Both the position numbers and the translations under genes were made by a program. A model generated the notes under the pieces. It did not search any database and had not been told where the DNA came from. It saw only the letters and a list, made by a program, of their open reading frames with translations. Below, one piece after another: positions 986 to 64,000 of a stretch of 64,000 nucleotides of DNA. Numbering within the stretch: position 1 is the stretch's first letter; each line of letters begins with the position of its first letter. This DNA comes from a virus. The stretch lies in IMG/VR virus record IMGVR_UViG_3300007734_000753, positions 1 through 64,000 of that record; one strand, 5' to 3'.

Positions 986-3720
986 TGGCTTTTGTACAAA
1001 AACAAAATACGGCTAAAAAAATATATAGATTGGTATTTTCGCACGATAACAACTATTGTTCCATGCCAACCTATCTTTACAATACTTCTAGCAATAAATT
1101 AGAAGCTTTTTCAGTCGATACAAATTTTCGCCTAAAAGATAAATCAGATTCGTTATTGTCTTATGTCGCAGAACTTGAACGACAAAAAAATGCAGGTTTG
1201 CAAAATAAAATTGATGTATTGAACATTTCTTTGCGCCAAACAATTTTTCCAAGAGAGGAAAATACATTTTTGAGCGGAACCATAAAAAGAGAAAATTATT
1301 CTTTTCCTTGGAAAGATTCTGCATCTGATAGGTATCTGAAGGTATCATCTTCACAACTTGATTCAACTACAATCAGTTATTTCAGCGCCTCTCCAAGTAC
1401 AAGACTTTTTTCTTATTGGCCAATGGATTGTAACATTGGCACGGCTCCCGCTGAAGCAAAATATGGCGAGCTTATGAATAAAGTCGAGGAAATTGTTTAT
1501 AACATTTTATACGCTAGATTCGGAAGAAATCTACTCGTCTCATCTTGTACGCCAGACAATGCCGTTCATATTCAAGCAGGAAAAGGTCCATTTCCAAATT
1601 CCTATGATGACTTCGTAAAAGATATAAAACTAATTTATAAGGACTATTCTGTTATTCCTGAATATACTTTTAGTGATAAGTTTAGAAACATTTTGGTATC
1701 TGGTTCTTCGATATATGATAACAGTTTCAATGTTTTGTCCTTACAAGGCTCTCCTTCTTATACAAATAATAATCTGTTCTTGGAAAGACATGTTCACAGC
1801 GATTATATAGAATCTTCCGGAGAAATACCAAGAGAATTTACAAACTATGATCTAAAGAAAATAAAAATTTCTGTAAATGGGGTAAAAAAGTTTTTACCCT
1901 ATGAAGGTTTATATCCACAGCAAAGAAGCTTACAATTATCAACTTTATTTTCACAATCAATAGCTCCAACCACAACTTTGAGTGGCGGTGGCACTTTTAG
2001 AACTGTTAGTAATTGGGTGTTTTCAAGAGGACTATATAACTCAATTCGTGCTGGAGTTGCTTGCGATATACCGCTTTGGAGATCTGGTGTGTTGAGCGAT
2101 ACTAGTACTTCATATGAACGTTTTCCATTTTTATCACTTATAAATCCAAATTCACAAATACAAAATGGATATGAAATTTATGACAACGAACCTTATAATG
2201 ATTCTTTTCCAAACAACATAATAGGCACAACCGCCAGCTTTGGTCAGTCAGATGGTATATATGATTTAGCAATAAACAACTTTGTAGCTGAAACTTGCAA
2301 CTTTTTTCTTGATGGCTCAAAGCTAACCACAATAAAATCAAAACCACGAAATGAGTGGAAGTTTGATTTTGGAAAGTATTCTTGTTTTGCAATGAACGTT
2401 GTTTTGAGAAAAAATTCTAACTTTACCAACCATGATGCTGTTGGATACTATGGTTATCCTTATAACTATTTTGCACCACCATATTATGGTCTTTATTCAA
2501 CCACCGCAACGACTCTATGGTCAACTGGCACAGTGGATTGTTCAATTGCACCAAGCGCTTCATGGTATGGAAATCGCGCAGTAGCAACAATTCTATTTGA
2601 TGCGTATAAGTGGTCACAAACAGTCCCTTCACAAGATAACATTCCAATTCCAACAATACAAGACATTATATCTTATAGCACCATATCTTTTGTGAATCAA
2701 AACATAAAAGATCAAGCAAGCAGCATACACTCCGCTGGTGCCTTCATGCCACTTACTGCTTCTGTAAATCTATTTGATTATTCAGAAAAGAAAGATCAAT
2801 GGAACATCCATACCATCTGGGAGTGTCCAGTACATAATTTTGTTGGTGTTTCAACATTGACCACTGCCAGCACAGATGGTGGAACGGGCGAGCGCCCCGG
2901 CAATGTACACAGGGGAACATGGCATCAATATAGCACGAACACTATTTCTGGACTAAGCTTGTCTTTGGAATACTCCAGTTCTATATCTGGCAGAGCAGAC
3001 AAGGTTGGCTCTTTGATAGAATCTTGCGGCTTTGATCTTGCTCCACAGAGAGTTGGAAACTTGGCAGACAAAAAGAGCGTCAAAGAATATGTCGTAGTTA
3101 TTCCATATATTGTTGATGATTGTGAAATTGAAAAATACTTCAAGATTCCATTGGATAAATTTGAGCAAGAATATAAAAGAGCGGATTTGACAGAAAATGA
3201 CAATTCCATTAGAGATATGATTAGAAAATCTAGGAAATGCGTATTGCCTCCTAGATTGAACTTTACTTATCACAGAGACAAGGTAAACCAAGAAATTTTG
3301 GACGAAGGAGGCTATTCAGATACATTGCCTCCGTTTGCAATGTATATATATGAATTTTCGTCTACTTTATCACGGCAAGATTTATCCAACATTTGGCAAG
3401 GAGTTTCGCCATCTTTATCAGACATCTCTGAATTTCAGAATGTAAACATAGAACATATAATAAGTGAGACTGAAGTGTTGAATCCTTCCAATTTGGAACC
3501 ATTTGGTGGTAATTTACCAGAAAATGTTAGATTCAAGGTATTCAAGGCAAAAGCACGTTCGTTGAGTTCTTATGAACAATTAGTCAAAAAAACAATCGGA
3601 GAACGATACGAGTCGGAAACTTATTCTTTCAATTGGCCATATGATTATTTTTCTTTGGTTGAAATGGCTAAAGTTGATGTGGAATTGTCTTATGAAGAAC
3701 AGACGGAAACACCACAATAA
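985..3720 (+). CDS. Large putative virion (baseplate/tail-associated) protein
   Basis: 911 aa, TAATG-coupled to the upstream ORF; S/T/Y-rich; C-terminal YSFNWPYDYFSLVEMAKVDVEL. Function inferred from context only. Confidence 0.5.
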   Translation: MAFVQKQNTAKKIYRLVFSHDNNYCSMPTYLYNTSSNKLEAFSVDTNFRLKDKSDSLLSYVAELERQKNAGLQNKIDVLNISLRQTIFPREENTFLSGTIKRENYSFPWKDSASDRYLKVSSSQLDSTTISYFSASPSTRLFSYWPMDCNIGTAPAEAKYGELMNKVEEIVYNILYARFGRNLLVSSCTPDNAVHIQAGKGPFPNSYDDFVKDIKLIYKDYSVIPEYTFSDKFRNILVSGSSIYDNSFNVLSLQGSPSYTNNNLFLERHVHSDYIESSGEIPREFTNYDLKKIKISVNGVKKFLPYEGLYPQQRSLQLSTLFSQSIAPTTTLSGGGTFRTVSNWVFSRGLYNSIRAGVACDIPLWRSGVLSDTSTSYERFPFLSLINPNSQIQNGYEIYDNEPYNDSFPNNIIGTTASFGQSDGIYDLAINNFVAETCNFFLDGSKLTTIKSKPRNEWKFDFGKYSCFAMNVVLRKNSNFTNHDAVGYYGYPYNYFAPPYYGLYSTTATTLWSTGTVDCSIAPSASWYGNRAVATILFDAYKWSQTVPSQDNIPIPTIQDIISYSTISFVNQNIKDQASSIHSAGAFMPLTASVNLFDYSEKKDQWNIHTIWECPVHNFVGVSTLTTASTDGGTGERPGNVHRGTWHQYSTNTISGLSLSLEYSSSISGRADKVGSLIESCGFDLAPQRVGNLADKKSVKEYVVVIPYIVDDCEIEKYFKIPLDKFEQEYKRADLTENDNSIRDMIRKSRKCVLPPRLNFTYHRDKVNQEILDEGGYSDTLPPFAMYIYEFSSTLSRQDLSNIWQGVSPSLSDISEFQNVNIEHIISETEVLNPSNLEPFGGNLPENVRFKVFKAKARSLSSYEQLVKKTIGERYESETYSFNWPYDYFSLVEMAKVDVELSYEEQTETPQ

Positions 3721-3744
3721 ACTAAATACTAATAGGACTTACTG

Positions 3745-4557
3745 ATGGAATTCTTCAACCAAAAAGAAGAAGTGCTTGATCTGGTGCTAACCACACGCGG
3801 CAAAGAACTTTTTACTCAAGGTAAATTCAAGCCACATGGTTATAAATTTTTTGATAACGAGACGGTTTATGAAGCCGAAAATGGCGAGCAACAAAACTCT
3901 ATAGTCTCAAGAATAAAAACAACTCCTTATCTAAAACAGGAAGTACCAAACGATTTTATTCCTAGTAAAGTAAATGTTTCAATTGTTGCACCTTATGGTT
4001 ATATCAACAATGCGGATTTATCAAATGAATTAGGGCAAAGCGATCAATTTACTGAGTATGCGCCATCATGGAATATACAATTCTTAGAATCTTCAGCGTC
4101 ATATAAAAGCGCTTTTCTGTCAGCAAGTATATCTGGCAAAACAAAATTAGACGAAAGAATTCCTCAGTTCAACATAAATGTAAATTATAAAGTTGCTTTG
4201 GTATATGCATATTATGACGAACAAAAGCAACAATACTTTTATAGTGAACAATATAAAGATAAATTCAACTATGTACAGTTAGTTTTACAAAAAGAATCTA
4301 ACGATGTTTTTGTGAAAGCACTAGAAAATAACTCTTTCTTACCAACTGAAAAACAAGAGCTTACTTTACAAATGTATCAATACAAAAATGTAAATGGTTA
4401 TCAGCAAGAACTAAAGCCAGTGAATTTAGATCCCTTACAAGAAGATTCTTATTCTAAATACTTCACAATTCTTTTTGATGATGTAGCTGAAGAATCTAGT
4501 AAGTTCAACACAAAGAATATATACGGAGAACCAGAAACAGAAAATGTTTGTGAATAA
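3745..4557 (+). CDS. Putative structural protein, N-terminal paralog of 9223..10173
   Basis: EVLDLVLTTRGKELFTQGKFK...FFDNET resembles ITLDAVLTDVGRKRLAQGNGSFKITQFALGDDE of ORF 9223. Confidence 0.55.
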   Translation: MEFFNQKEEVLDLVLTTRGKELFTQGKFKPHGYKFFDNETVYEAENGEQQNSIVSRIKTTPYLKQEVPNDFIPSKVNVSIVAPYGYINNADLSNELGQSDQFTEYAPSWNIQFLESSASYKSAFLSASISGKTKLDERIPQFNINVNYKVALVYAYYDEQKQQYFYSEQYKDKFNYVQLVLQKESNDVFVKALENNSFLPTEKQELTLQMYQYKNVNGYQQELKPVNLDPLQEDSYSKYFTILFDDVAEESSKFNTKNIYGEPETENVCE

Positions 4558-59902: not shown

Positions 59903-61303
59903 ATGACAGCCCAAAATGAAAAAGTGGACTTTTCCAAATTCGGTAAAAATTTTCAAGAAAAACTAGTACATATCATGTTTCGTGACCGATTATTCTGCGA
60001 CCAAATGCGCGAAGTAATCGATCTAAATTTCCTAGAAAACGCTTATACTCGCGTCTTTGTTGAGAAGATGTTCGATTATAAGGATAAGTTTCAATCGCAT
60101 CCAGCTGAAGCTACAGTCGCAACTATTTTGCGTTCAGACTTGGATAATGAAAATGAGGCAACACAAAAGCAAGTACGTGAGTATTTTGCTCGTATTGTTG
60201 CGGATAAAGAAGTTGAAGATGCAGACTTCGTAAAGACAACTGCCCTAGACTTCTGCAAAAAGCAGAAGCTCAAGGAAGCTATTATCAAGTCAGCAAAACT
60301 GCTGCAAAAATCTGCATCTTATGATGAAATCAAAAATGTTGTCGATTCCGCTCTTCGTTTGGGCAGCGACAATAACTTTGGTTATGATTATGAAAAAGAC
60401 TTTGACAAACGCTTTGAGCATCACTCTCGCAAAGCCATTTCAACTGGCTGGTCTGAGATTGATGAAATCACCCAAGGCGGTCTTGGTCGTGGCGAAATGG
60501 GCGTTGTAATTGCAGGAACTGGCGGTGGTAAATCGTTTAGTCTTGTTCATATCGGCGCTAATGCAATTTTATCAGGTAAAACTGTTGTTCACTATACGCT
60601 TGAGCTTTCTGATGTAAGTGTCGGTAAACGCTATGATAGTTGCATTACTGGTATCGAGCTAAATGAACTTACTAAAAACAAGCTAAAAGTTTTTGATACA
60701 CTAAAAGAGGTTGTGAAAGGCAAGCTTATCATCAAAGAATACCCAACTCGTACAGCTAGCGTTCTTACGTTGCGTAATCACTTGATGAAGCTAAAAAATT
60801 CTGGTAATGATCCCGATGTTATTATCGTGGATTATGGCGATCTTTTGGTAACAAAAAATGGTTCTGGTCAGAAATGGATTGACATGGAGACTATTTACGA
60901 AGAGTTGCGTGGTCTAGCACAGGAGTTTCAGTGCCCCATCTGGACAGCCTCTCAAGTAAACCGTAGTGCCTCGGAATCAGAGGTCATTACAATGGACGGT
61001 ATCGCTTCGGCGTTCAGTAAGTGCTTCGTGGCAGACTTTATTTGTTCAATGGCTCGTAATTCTAGTGCCCGCAATGGCAATTCTGCTCGTATGTATATTG
61101 CTAAAAATCGTAACGGTCCAGATGGCGGCATCTTCCCGATGTATATCGACTTATCCCGCGCCAAGCTAGAGGTATTACCAAAAGCTACGGAGACAGTTGA
61201 TTCTGTTCGTGAAGAGTCTGCCAAACGTCAAGCTGATTCACTGAAAGAAAAGTATAAGAAATTCAAGAAGTCCATGGATATGGACGATGACGACGAGGAA
61301 TAA
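59903..61303 (+). CDS. Replicative helicase (gp41/DnaB-like)
   Basis: Walker A AGTGGGKS, TLEL, IIVDY, WTASQVNR, AKNRNG; ATG 59903 after an AGGAG SD. Confidence 0.93.
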   Translation: MTAQNEKVDFSKFGKNFQEKLVHIMFRDRLFCDQMREVIDLNFLENAYTRVFVEKMFDYKDKFQSHPAEATVATILRSDLDNENEATQKQVREYFARIVADKEVEDADFVKTTALDFCKKQKLKEAIIKSAKLLQKSASYDEIKNVVDSALRLGSDNNFGYDYEKDFDKRFEHHSRKAISTGWSEIDEITQGGLGRGEMGVVIAGTGGGKSFSLVHIGANAILSGKTVVHYTLELSDVSVGKRYDSCITGIELNELTKNKLKVFDTLKEVVKGKLIIKEYPTRTASVLTLRNHLMKLKNSGNDPDVIIVDYGDLLVTKNGSGQKWIDMETIYEELRGLAQEFQCPIWTASQVNRSASESEVITMDGIASAFSKCFVADFICSMARNSSARNGNSARMYIAKNRNGPDGGIFPMYIDLSRAKLEVLPKATETVDSVREESAKRQADSLKEKYKKFKKSMDMDDDDEE

Positions 61304-61304
61304 A

Positions 61305-63164
61305 ATGGATATATCACAAAAAATACTTAGCGACATTACTCATCACATGAAGTATGCTCGCTATATCAAGCAAGAACTACGCAGAGAAAGTTATGAAGAT
61401 ACTGTAACTCGTAATATGTTAATGCATATTGCTAAGTTCCCACAGTTAGAACAAGAAATCCGGGATGCTTATAAATTTGTACTTGATCGCAAGGTTTTAC
61501 CTTCAATGCGTTCAATGCAATTTGGCGGGCGTCCCATTGAAGTAAATCCAGTTCGTATATTTAATTGTGCGTTCTTGGCTCTTGATGATGTTCGTGCTTT
61601 TAATGAGATCATGTTCCTTCTTCTTGGCGGAACTGGTGTCGGTTATTCAGTACAAAAACATCATGTAGAAAAGCTACCAGAGATTCGTAAGCCAAATCCA
61701 AAACGTACTCGTCGTTTTCTAGTTGGCGATAGCATTGAAGGTTGGGCTGATTCTGTAAAAGCCCTGATGCGTTCTTATTTTGATGGTGGATCAAAAGTTA
61801 TATTTGATTTTAGAGACATTCGTCCAAAAGGTGCTCGTCTTGTAACTGCTGGTGGCAAAGCCCCCGGTCCACAACCATTAAAAGAGTGCCTAATCAAACT
61901 AGAAGGCATTTTGGAGGGTAAAGAAGATGGTGACAAGCTTGAACCAATTGAAGTACATGACATTGTATGCCATATCGCAGATGCCGTATTGGCTGGTGGA
62001 ATTAGACGTTCTGCTCTTATTTGTCTCTTTAGCGCAGACGATGATGAAATGATCGCCTGCAAATCAGGTGCTTGGTGGGAAACCAACCCTCAACGTGGTC
62101 GTGCCAATAACTCCGCTGTTATTTTGCGTCACAGAATAACAAAAGAGTATTTTATGGATTTGTGGGCACGCATCAAAGCCTCTGGTGCTGGTGAACCCGG
62201 TATTTTCTTTACAAACGATAAAGAATGGGGCACAAACCCATGTGCAGAGATTGCTCTTCGCAGTAATCAGTTCTGCAATTTATGTGAAGTAAACGTAAGC
62301 GACCTAGAATCACAGGAGGATTATGAAGCAAGAGTCAAAGCGGCAGCGTTTATTGGTACGCTTCAAGCATCGTATACTGATTTTCACTACCTACGCGATG
62401 TATGGCGTAGAACAACTGAAAAAGAGGCTCTTCTTGGGATTGGAATGACAGGTATTGCTTCTAACAAAGTGCAAAAGCTTGATATGAAAAAGGCTGCGAA
62501 AGTTGCAGTTGAAGAAAATAAAAGAGTTGCTGCTTTGTTAGGTATCAATCCTGCTGCCCGCGTCACCACTGTAAAGCCTTCAGGCACAACTAGTTTGATT
62601 CTTGGTACTTCTAGCGGCGTTCATGCTTGGCATAATGATTATTATGTTCGCCGCATTCGTGTTGGTAAGAACGAAGCCATTTACAAGTATCTACTAGATA
62701 ATCATCCAGAGTTAGTTGAAGACGAATACTTCCGCCCACATGATACGGCTGTTATTTCGGTTCCACAAAAGGCTCCAGAAGGTGCTACTATGAGAACGGA
62801 AAGTGCCCTAGAAATGCTTGAGCGAGTAAAGGACATTCATAGCCGCTGGGTAAAGCCGGGACATATTAGAGGACAAAACACTCATAATGTTTCAGCTACA
62901 GTCTCAATCAAAGAAGATGAGTGGGAACAAGTTGGTGAATGGATGTGGGAAAACCGCGATTCATACACTGGCTTGAGTGTATTGCCTTTTGATACAGGAA
63001 CATATAAACAGACCCCTTTCCAAGACTGTACAAAAGAAGAATTTGAAAGACTTTTTAATGAACTAAAAAATGTGGAACTAACTCATGTTCTTGAAGTAGA
63101 AGATAATACCGATCTTCAGAATGAATTAGCGTGTACGGGACCAAATGGATGTGAGATAAAATAA
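61305..63164 (+). CDS. nrdJ: Class II (adenosylcobalamin) ribonucleotide reductase
   Basis: FNCA, GTGVG, GGIRRSA, GEPG, TNPCAEI, CNL, TTVKPSGT; C-terminal CTGPNGCEIK redox pair; no C-terminal YY pair of class I. Confidence 0.88.
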   Translation: MDISQKILSDITHHMKYARYIKQELRRESYEDTVTRNMLMHIAKFPQLEQEIRDAYKFVLDRKVLPSMRSMQFGGRPIEVNPVRIFNCAFLALDDVRAFNEIMFLLLGGTGVGYSVQKHHVEKLPEIRKPNPKRTRRFLVGDSIEGWADSVKALMRSYFDGGSKVIFDFRDIRPKGARLVTAGGKAPGPQPLKECLIKLEGILEGKEDGDKLEPIEVHDIVCHIADAVLAGGIRRSALICLFSADDDEMIACKSGAWWETNPQRGRANNSAVILRHRITKEYFMDLWARIKASGAGEPGIFFTNDKEWGTNPCAEIALRSNQFCNLCEVNVSDLESQEDYEARVKAAAFIGTLQASYTDFHYLRDVWRRTTEKEALLGIGMTGIASNKVQKLDMKKAAKVAVEENKRVAALLGINPAARVTTVKPSGTTSLILGTSSGVHAWHNDYYVRRIRVGKNEAIYKYLLDNHPELVEDEYFRPHDTAVISVPQKAPEGATMRTESALEMLERVKDIHSRWVKPGHIRGQNTHNVSATVSIKEDEWEQVGEWMWENRDSYTGLSVLPFDTGTYKQTPFQDCTKEEFERLFNELKNVELTHVLEVEDNTDLQNELACTGPNGCEIK

Positions 63165-63182
63165 TCCTCTAATAATGGTGTT

Positions 63183-63240
63183 TATTTTTACCACCTCTTT
63201 TTGTAGATATAACTATTTATATTAAGAGGTGGTAAAGATG
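63183..63240 (+). promoter_or_regulatory. RBS/AUG-sequestering hairpin with the late promoter in its loop
   Basis: tttaccacctctt (63187-63199) pairs with aagaggtggtaaa (63224-63236); ACTATTTATA at 63212. Confidence 0.8.
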
Positions 63241-63819
63241 AAAAGCAAGTTTGATAATACCTATGAAATAGGACATTTATTTGGTGAATGGAAACTATTA
63301 AATAATATTCCATTACGAATTCCAAAAAAGTCATCTACAACTAAAGATAAACATACGTTGAAATTTTTATGTTTATGTACAAGCTGCAATACAGAACATT
63401 TAGTTGATTGTTATAATCTAGAAAAAAGCATAAGTAAAAGGTGCTATAAATGCTCTATGAAAAATACTAAAGGGTGTAATAATCCATTTTGGAAAGGATA
63501 TGGAAAAATTGGTGCAAAGTTTTTAAGTCGTGCTAAACACGGTGCTTCTTTAAGAAAAATAAATTTTAATCTAACTTTGGAAGAGCTGGACAGAAAATGG
63601 CATGAACAAAAAGAAATTTGTGCTTTATCTGGTAAGCTCTTAACTTTAGAAGAAGCATCTATAGATAGAATTGATAGCGACGGAATATACGAATATAATA
63701 ATATTCAATGGGTCCACAAAGACATTAATCTTATGAAAAACCACTTAAATCAAGAATATTTTATTGAGATGTGTAGACTAGTTTCTGGCTATGCGGGCGG
63801 CGCTTGTGAAATCAAATAA
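63238..63819 (+). mobile_element. Free-standing HNH-family homing endonuclease gene
   Basis: N-terminal GHLFGEW..LCLCTSC..C..C..NPFWKG; CALSG; ASIDRIDSDGIYEYNNIQWVHKDINLMK; inserted at the nrdJ 3' end. Confidence 0.8.
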
Positions 63820-63830
63820 CTATTTACGGT

Positions 63831-64000
63831 ATGCCTCTTCCGTTTAGAATACCAAAAACAGACAATACAATAACTAGCCCTCTAACTTCTTTCAACGAGG
63901 TCAGCGTTGCTGAATTATATCCGGCAGCTCAAGGAGACTTTATTTATGGTATAAATAATGTTGTATTTATATCCAGCTCGTATTCTGGCGGTTCAATTTC
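63831..64000 (+). CDS. Start of a late, probably structural, protein truncated by the window edge
   Basis: MPLPFRIPKTDNTITSPLTSFNEVSVAELYPAAQGDFIYG...; ACTATTTAC ends 3-4 nt upstream; no SD. Confidence 0.55.
   Translation, partial: MPLPFRIPKTDNTITSPLTSFNEVSVAELYPAAQGDFIYGINNVVFISSSYSGGSI

Follow-up and report, generated by a model that had tools for sequence, protein, structure and literature searches.

Phage ribonucleotide reductase genes host several kinds of mobile element: introns, inteins, the insertion that splits nrdA of Aeromonas phage Aeh1, and the split inteins of "fractured" genes (PMC3653736, PMC2677866, PMC10448857). Another mode of invasion, in which an endonuclease open reading frame (ORF) replaces the end of the gene it enters, is described from fungal mitochondria (atp6 of Allomyces macrogynus; atp6, atp9, cox2 and nad3 of Glomus; PMC3630166) and from the yeasts Torulaspora and Lachancea, whose WHO elements home into FBA1 (Coughlan et al. 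2020, PMC7282813). Here we analyse a stretch of viral DNA of 64,000 nucleotides, positions 1 to 64,000 of IMG/VR record IMGVR_UViG_3300007734_000753, which is referred to below as the window. The record comprises a 76.7-kb viral contig, which CheckV estimates to be about 42% complete. Near the end of the window, the class II-type reductase gene nrdJ is followed by a gene for an HNH-like nuclease. In our opinion, it is highly probable that a free-standing homing-endonuclease cassette entered the last codons of nrdJ and supplied the gene with a substitute end. No report of such a gene-end-swap layout for phage nrdJ was found in the open-access literature.

Anatomy of the locus

The elements of the locus are as follows.

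61287..63164, plus strand: nrdJ, full-length gene for a monomeric class II-type ribonucleotide reductase, ending in the substitute tail
63135..63164, plus strand: substitute tail TGPNGCEIK and stop, with two cysteines five residues apart (C-x5-C), which occurs only together with the nuclease gene
63135..63794, plus strand: insertion as delimited by the endonuclease-free allele, 660 bases in place of CA, running from the substitute tail through the spacer and hairpin into the nuclease ORF as far as the remnant
63183..63240, plus strand: RNA hairpin, in which an anti-Shine-Dalgarno arm pairs with the Shine-Dalgarno sequence (63224-63232) and AUG (63238-63240) of the nuclease gene
63212..63219, plus strand: promoter-like motif ACTATTTA in the apical part of the hairpin
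63238..63819, plus strand: free-standing HNH-like homing endonuclease ORF, 193 residues, with an N-terminal four-Cys zinc finger and a C-terminal beta-beta-alpha core (about 140-168)
63790..63819, plus strand: native nrdJ tail remnant AGGACEIK and stop, preceded by the first Cys codon changed to Tyr, read in frame as the C-terminus of the nuclease
63819..63826, plus strand: second ACTATTTA motif, overlapping the stop codon of the remnant, 5 bases before the downstream gene (ATG 63831)

The 625-residue NrdJ (C-terminus ...NELACTGPNGCEIK) matches Pfam families Ribonuc_red_lgC (PF02867, 3.6e-12) and RNR-II_ins_dom (PF21995, 2.4e-07), both above the cut-offs, as well as PHROG 367 (1.9e-133, residues 3-624). 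The reductase barrel, the class II insertion domain and the C-terminal Cys pair are all present. The reading frame of nrdJ closes at its own stop (63162-63164), 73 bases before the ATG of the nuclease gene, whose product ends in ...VSGYAGGACEIK. An alternative GTG start lies at 63229; ATG 63238 is taken as the start because homologues begin with MKSKFDN. No other copy of the nuclease family is present in the record.

A preliminary description of this DNA had reported that NrdJ ends in ELACTGPNGCEIK and the downstream ORF in GYAGGACEIK, and had proposed that the ancestral tail was left fused in frame to the nuclease. Both endings and the fusion are indeed seen in the sequence. Its term "recoded" for the substitute tail is, in our view, too mild: the tail does differ, but its amino acids are changed and it is one residue longer, with a spacing of x5 between its cysteines versus x4 in all 50 distinct endonuclease-free tails. 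The remnant is likely to serve as a 3' homology arm, and the TAT codon at its start is probably the mutated first Cys codon of the native tail.

Comparison with described systems

Like the fungal mitochondrial elements termed mORFs, the cassette places an endonuclease gene in the 3' end of an essential gene; in both cases a divergent C-terminal piece completes the gene before the ORF, and the displaced native piece follows it. The insert and ORF of mORFs are sometimes in phase with the gene. Unlike mORFs, which encode LAGLIDADG or GIY-YIG enzymes in organelles, the phage cassette encodes an HNH-like enzyme, replaces only 9 codons, uses the remnant as the C-terminus of the nuclease itself, and carries a hairpin with a promoter-like motif. 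WHO elements similarly combine a resistance-conferring 3' end with an endonuclease gene, and the old 3' fragment downstream provides homology for repair. Repeated homing of WHO elements leads to fast evolution of the 3' end; here, the nuclease-adjacent tails are diverse and the remnants are of the common type. Unlike the cassette, WHO elements are intein-derived, act in the meiosis of diploids, and replace about 400 bases. Their fragments need not stay open, whereas the remnant here lies in the reading frame of the nuclease. Allele-specific cleavage has been shown for WHO6, whereas the present cassette is known from sequence. Judging from sequence and predicted fold, the cassette is a putative functional counterpart of mORFs and WHO elements and, given its HNH-like enzyme, not a member of either by descent.

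Among phage systems, the nearest is mobE in nrdA of Aeh1, also a free-standing HNH-type gene within a reductase gene, without intron or intein (PMC2988022; PMC3653736). A hairpin that sequesters the ribosome-binding site and a late promoter are found at T4 I-TevI and segB and at Aeh1 mobE (PMC2988022), and a similar arrangement, with a promoter-like motif, is seen here. Unlike nrdA of Aeh1, which is split into two reassembling polypeptides, nrdJ stays in one piece and receives a new end; unlike MobE, the nuclease has no Pfam HNH_3 match and carries a four-Cys finger at its N-terminus. The "fractured" metagenomic NrdA and NrdJ genes (Dassa et al. 2009, PMC2677866) also have an endonuclease gene in a phage-like nrdJ, with hairpin control elements brought along. 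Unlike them, the cassette contains no intein halves, requires no protein splicing, and sits at the extreme 3' end instead of the active site.

The preliminary description presented the arrangement as an intron-less way to invade an essential gene. The intron-less part stands, as an Rfam search of 62800-64000 at E ≤ 10 found no intron family; the principle is not new, given the fungal and yeast precedents (PMC3630166, PMC7282813). What this locus adds is the very short swap, the in-frame remnant, the empty allele from the same samples, and the family-wide link to one target.

Empty and filled alleles

A first line of evidence comes from endonuclease-free relatives. Among 80 viral contigs encoding NrdJ of 71-89% identity, the commonest tail is ELACAGGACEIK (23/80), and almost all tails have the C-x4-C spacing. 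It had been predicted that relatives lacking the nuclease would end directly in LACAGGACEIK, a typical class II redox tail, and that such relatives ending in TGPNGCEIK would speak against the idea. The 23 contigs bear out the former, as does the uniform C-x4-C spacing of the 50 distinct tails; the TGPNG tail was looked for and found in 0 of the 80. The closest endonuclease-free relative, L001, encodes an NrdJ with 89% amino-acid identity and has no insert. Window positions 63792-63819 agree with the end of its nrdJ at 25 of 28 bases, and its downstream gene is the same as that of the window, which it matches from 63906 on. This match, together with the shared downstream gene, makes the resemblance of the remnant to a native tail more than chance.

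An empty allele was found by aligning Logan contigs from four public runs, none recorded as RNA, to positions 61800-64000. In runs X1, X5 and X8, which come from three studies, contigs run from 63134 straight to 63795, separated only by the letters CA. The allele so defined has no endonuclease gene and would end in LACQGGACEIK. Contigs that span the insert, i.e., the filled allele, occur in the same three runs; the depths of empty versus filled allele, per run, are 18.5 versus 63.3, 3.6 versus 6.65, and 5.0 versus 3.6. The join shows that 63135-63794, with the TGPNG tail, the spacer and the nuclease gene, is a single insertion or deletion, that its left edge lies directly after the LAC codons, as previously proposed, and that the bases from about 63790 are the native tail. 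A join at about 63134-63793 had been named as the mark of a spliced message; it exists, but in DNA and with a CA that the window does not encode, which identifies a DNA allele and not a splice product. More diverged endonuclease-free contigs stop matching earlier and realign exactly at 63792, the third base of the window's TAT codon, which in those contigs would be the first Cys codon.

A second pair of alleles consists of L030 (empty) and L038 (filled), the latter with a remnant of at most 9 bases. A target-site duplication, GGG or NNGGG, was considered at the junction and is too short to judge. No phage isolate was found to carry the cassette, the only long match in the phage collection being Microcystis phage Mel-JY01, with 67.7% identity over part of nrdJ.

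The nuclease family and reductase tails

The second line of evidence is the association of the nuclease family with reductase tails. A profile search of the viral collection yielded at least 500 family loci, of which the best 80 were studied. In 44 of the 77 loci having an upstream ORF, the family member lies directly behind an NrdJ-like ORF with a terminal Cys pair. Reductase-type tails (AGGACEIK, AGGACEVK, CAGGACTIV, GGSCGV and others) end 11 of 51 homologous proteins, and both tail copies are visible, in frame, in L088, L111/112, L114, L122, L141, L147 and L153. In L061 and L066, the remnant lies 17 bases past the nuclease stop. A much longer one is found in L083 (3270-4200), where a 45-codon nrdJ end is duplicated directly after the nuclease stop and is still open. 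At the nucleotide level it agrees with the functional copy at 71%; 20 codons differ synonymously and 12 non-synonymously, and over the last 14 residues every difference is silent. In a tree of nuclease cores from which the tails had been removed, remnant-bearing genes fall into at least 6 supported clades.

The third line of evidence is the variety of remnants attached to nearly the same enzyme. Within one 90% cluster, nuclease bodies that are identical or one residue apart show the junctions GYA- (the window), SCA-, SCV- and FYK-GGACEIK, and CAGGAC and CVGGAC tails occur in endonuclease-free relatives. The simplest reading is that the same nuclease gene entered different recipient tails. L163 is a filled allele, 97.5% identical. 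L164 has the same nuclease end and remnant, with 1 mismatch in 123 bases, and beyond the remnant its DNA shows no relation to the 1.5 kb that follow in the window genome. This pattern agrees with the WHO model, where repair relies on homology to the gene fragment left downstream (PMC7282813).

Several other arrangements were observed within the family. In L095, L101, L102, L105, L117, L118, L125, L148, L149, L155 and L156, the nuclease ORF overlaps the nrdJ stop (e.g., TAATG). This sub-clade has neither the hairpin nor a detectable remnant, and it looks as if translational coupling replaces the hairpin lock. L128 and L132 (about 3400-4031) have an NrdJ-like ORF ending in ...GGTCGA, followed by family members ending in ...GKGGSCGV or ...GKGGTCGG, which by its sequence is apparently the same swap with a different tail type. 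A separate clade (L134-L136, L139, L144, L157 and L160; e.g., L135, 3360-3880) targets a small conserved gene ending in ...SNKIKW, which adjoins a gene with C-terminal motifs read by eye as terminase-like. In this clade, the nuclease ATG lies inside the new gene end (AAATGGTGA) and the nuclease ends in ...KVKW; thus, a direct repeat of about 12 bases of the gene end brackets the nuclease ORF. Two family members stand in tandem, outside a reductase context, in L123 (3276-4606). Finally, in L022 (4870-5440), a different, more canonical nuclease gene with the pattern CxxC...DR..D...CxxCN lies behind nrdJ, which indicates that the 3' end of nrdJ draws more than one endonuclease lineage.

Sequence and predicted fold of the nuclease

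The nuclease matches PHROG families 1035, 3322 and 3118, annotated as endonuclease VII or HNH endonuclease, at 2.3e-15 to 7.6e-10. In 51 homologues, C47, C50, C69, C72, D143, R144, N155, N164 and K167 are invariant and H160 is present in at least 90%, forming the motif S-x-D-R-I ... N ... H ... N-x-M-K. An AlphaFold2 model (mean predicted local distance difference test score 86) places strands at 140-144 and 156-160 and a helix at 161-168, so that the nearly invariant His160 lies in the second strand and the invariant Asn164 in the helix. The best Foldseek matches of the model are the Gme HNH domain (probability 1.0, E 2.4e-3), the HNH domain of Cas9, and PacI. In VIA-align, the list of matches consists mostly of HNH domains, at Z scores of 5.5 to 6.7 that are only middling: PacI at Z 6.7 (root-mean-square deviation, rmsd, 6.8; 104 residues aligned), Gme HNH at Z 5.8 (rmsd 3.4, 74 aligned) and TasH at Z 5.5 (rmsd 2.2, 54 aligned). 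The earlier designation of this ORF as HNH therefore stands as far as the PHROG matches and the predicted fold go, but finds no counterpart in Pfam. Because Asp-Arg takes the place of Asp-His, we call the protein HNH-like, and its catalysis is putative. Sequence and model together suggest that it belongs to an HNH-like family for which there is no curated model.

DNA recognition may reside in the N-terminal module and the four-Cys finger. Residues 8-67 (63238-63440) align weakly with small beta barrels of the CarD/Tudor-like type (Z 4.4-4.6). Proteins P0007 and P0002 differ in the N-terminal zinc-finger module and are identical in the last ~50 residues, the tail remnant included, a pattern that suggests module shuffling among endonuclease genes.

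Probable control of nuclease expression

The 58 bases up to and including the AUG of the nuclease gene fold into a hairpin with a minimum free energy of -29.3 kcal/mol (z -10.5; none of 200 shuffled sequences was as stable). Equivalent hairpins with different stem sequences precede the nuclease gene in the other 11 related loci tested (z -4.4 to -10.8). The hairpins were judged by single-sequence folds, and compensatory changes by eye only; RNAalifold, applied to a MAFFT alignment of the hairpins in which the arms were misaligned, returned no consensus structure.

The motif ACTATTTA in the apex of the hairpin occurs 14 times in the window, always on the plus strand, compared with 4.07 copies expected on both strands. 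The sites include 9193, 30050, 35160, 38411, 41012, 46310, 55832, 63212 and 63819, and by our reading most copies stand 10-50 bases before a gene start. The motif or a near variant is kept in the hairpin apex of related loci; related contigs carry ACTATTTA too. Its distribution makes it probably the promoter box of this phage group. Translation of the nuclease would then probably be confined to transcripts that start inside the hairpin, by analogy with I-TevI of T4.

Proposed target and immunity

The probable target can be narrowed to about 30 bases around the Cys-x4-Cys codons. The inner tail sequence AGGA is found in 34 of 50 endonuclease-free tails versus 1 of 34 endonuclease-adjacent tails, a contrast whose p-value should not be read literally, the two sets being sampled differently and the relatives not independent. 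The remnants are mostly (A)GGA. The preliminary description proposed that the substitute tail would be immune to cleavage by its own nuclease. The direction of the contrast fits the view that AGGA-type tails would be sensitive to cleavage and nuclease-linked tails resistant. Of the endonuclease-adjacent tails, 3 of 34 depart from the x4 cysteine spacing, versus none of the other 50, a difference that is not significant (p = 0.06). The more general explanation of protection may be that the cassette divides a site extending across the first Cys codon.

Points against the cassette and alternative explanations

It should be noted that several observations weigh against our interpretation. The bases beside the right junction are CA in the empty allele and GC in the window; the window thus cannot be derived from that very allele by insertion alone. 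The limits on the AGGA contrast given above also count here. In L147, the functional tail and the remnant are identical over the last 28 bases, so that recoding of those bases is not what protects the L147 allele. The last 40 residues of NrdJ are 61.5% identical to those of L001, which is only the 5th percentile of 432 endonuclease-free control pairs of similar overall identity, and part of this divergence is the tail itself; as a sign of co-conversion it is weak. Among public runs, none recorded as RNA is listed as containing the stretch. As to the enzyme, Pfam gave no family for the window nuclease at E ≤ 0.1 and no HNH family for 25 family members at E ≤ 1; searches of the PDB by sequence, with the single protein and with a profile, gave nothing relevant; the VIA-align scores are middling; and in a motif alignment made by eye, the invariant Asp143-Arg144 stands where canonical HNH enzymes have Asp-His.

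One alternative is that the nuclease resides in a self-splicing intron, splicing of which from about 63134 to about 63795 would restore LAC-AGGACEIK and make the TGPNGCEIK ending incidental. Group I introns that contain HNH genes are common in phage reductase genes (PMC3653736), and the join has the very coordinates that a splice would need. We nevertheless find an intron hardly credible. The join comes from runs not recorded as RNA and contains the unencoded CA; the Rfam search returned only chance microRNA-like matches on the hairpin; just ~73 non-coding bases precede the ORF and none follow it; nrdJ is closed in frame by a Cys-containing tail that ends in CEIK; and at this place the 12 related loci have a hairpin over the ribosome-binding site instead of an intron core. 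Another alternative is that the nuclease, like ordinary free-standing endonucleases, first entered the spacer behind an intact nrdJ, with TGPNG as an escape mutation made in place and the tail-like C-terminus as a small local duplication instead of the tail of the recipient. That many family members stand behind nrdJ without a remnant, some overlapping its stop, agrees with such an entry, as do the spacer before the nuclease gene, which resembles a motif in the spacer of L001, and the last codons of the functional tail with two post-stop bases, which are slightly nearer to L001 than the remnant is (16/17). However, the empty allele lacks TGPNG and the nuclease together, and its tail continues into the bases of the remnant. 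Moreover, remnants vary beside identical nuclease bodies and match the natural tails CAGGAC and CVGGAC, and L083 retains 45 native-type codons behind its nuclease gene. Entry into the spacer is, in our judgement, very unlikely.

Somewhat different is the possibility that the cassette is real and its nuclease dead or domesticated, for example as a DNA-binding regulator, the polymorphism having arisen by deletion or ordinary recombination. All family members have Arg where the catalytic His of canonical enzymes would stand, a Pfam HNH match is absent, and T4 is reported to have defunct endonucleases that are moved in trans (PMC2790892). On the other hand, Asp-Arg and both Asn residues are invariant, and His160 nearly so, across 25 sequences that are 31-79% identical to the window protein, which argues for conserved activity. 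The family occupies one precise type of site in many unrelated backbones, with fresh, variable remnants beside identical bodies, a combination hard to obtain without site-specific breaks, and a simple deletion between the repeats would not give the CA allele. We therefore regard a dead nuclease as unlikely and retain the homing cassette as the best explanation.

Proposed cycle and significance

The homing cassette may be pictured as a mobile unit that consists, in order, of the substitute redox tail, the spacer with the motif in its hairpin, the HNH-like gene, and a remnant of the recipient type, AGGACEIK. In a mixed infection, the nuclease would cut an endonuclease-free nrdJ in or next to the conserved C-AGGA-C codons. 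The broken left end would pair with the body of the donor nrdJ and the right end with the remnant; functional constraint on the tail keeps this sequence similar even in phages that differ elsewhere. Repair would then copy the substitute tail and the nuclease gene, and the resulting filled allele would escape cutting, its site being split and its functional tail different. The nuclease ORF runs into the remnant and uses its stop codon.

A broader view is that the HNH-like family is a phage-wide homing element specialised on the reductase redox tail, which would find its target in the few conserved tail codons and carry the same codons along, in its own reading frame, as a 3' homology arm. Such an element would hop between unrelated backbones and would at present be spreading among the viruses of fresh and estuarine waters. 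It would be the chief cause of tail diversification (from AGGA to variants including C-x5-C and C-x3-C), and would use the same trick on at least one other gene end, KIKW. We consider the case for and against this wider picture to be evenly balanced.

Endonucleases enter phage genes by way of introns, inteins, split inteins and gene splitting; replacement of a gene end would be a fifth way, known from fungal mitochondria and yeast and seen here in a phage reductase alongside an empty allele from the same populations. With a replaced piece of nine codons, the cassette would be a compact system for the study of target recognition, immunity and minimal repair homology. It would also explain the variation of reductase tails beside these nuclease genes, in a family that numbers at least 500 loci in the viral collection and still lacks a curated model. 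Odd gene ends and seemingly "fused" nuclease C-termini can be scars of homing, which matters for annotation and for the use of ribonucleotide reductase as a viral marker.

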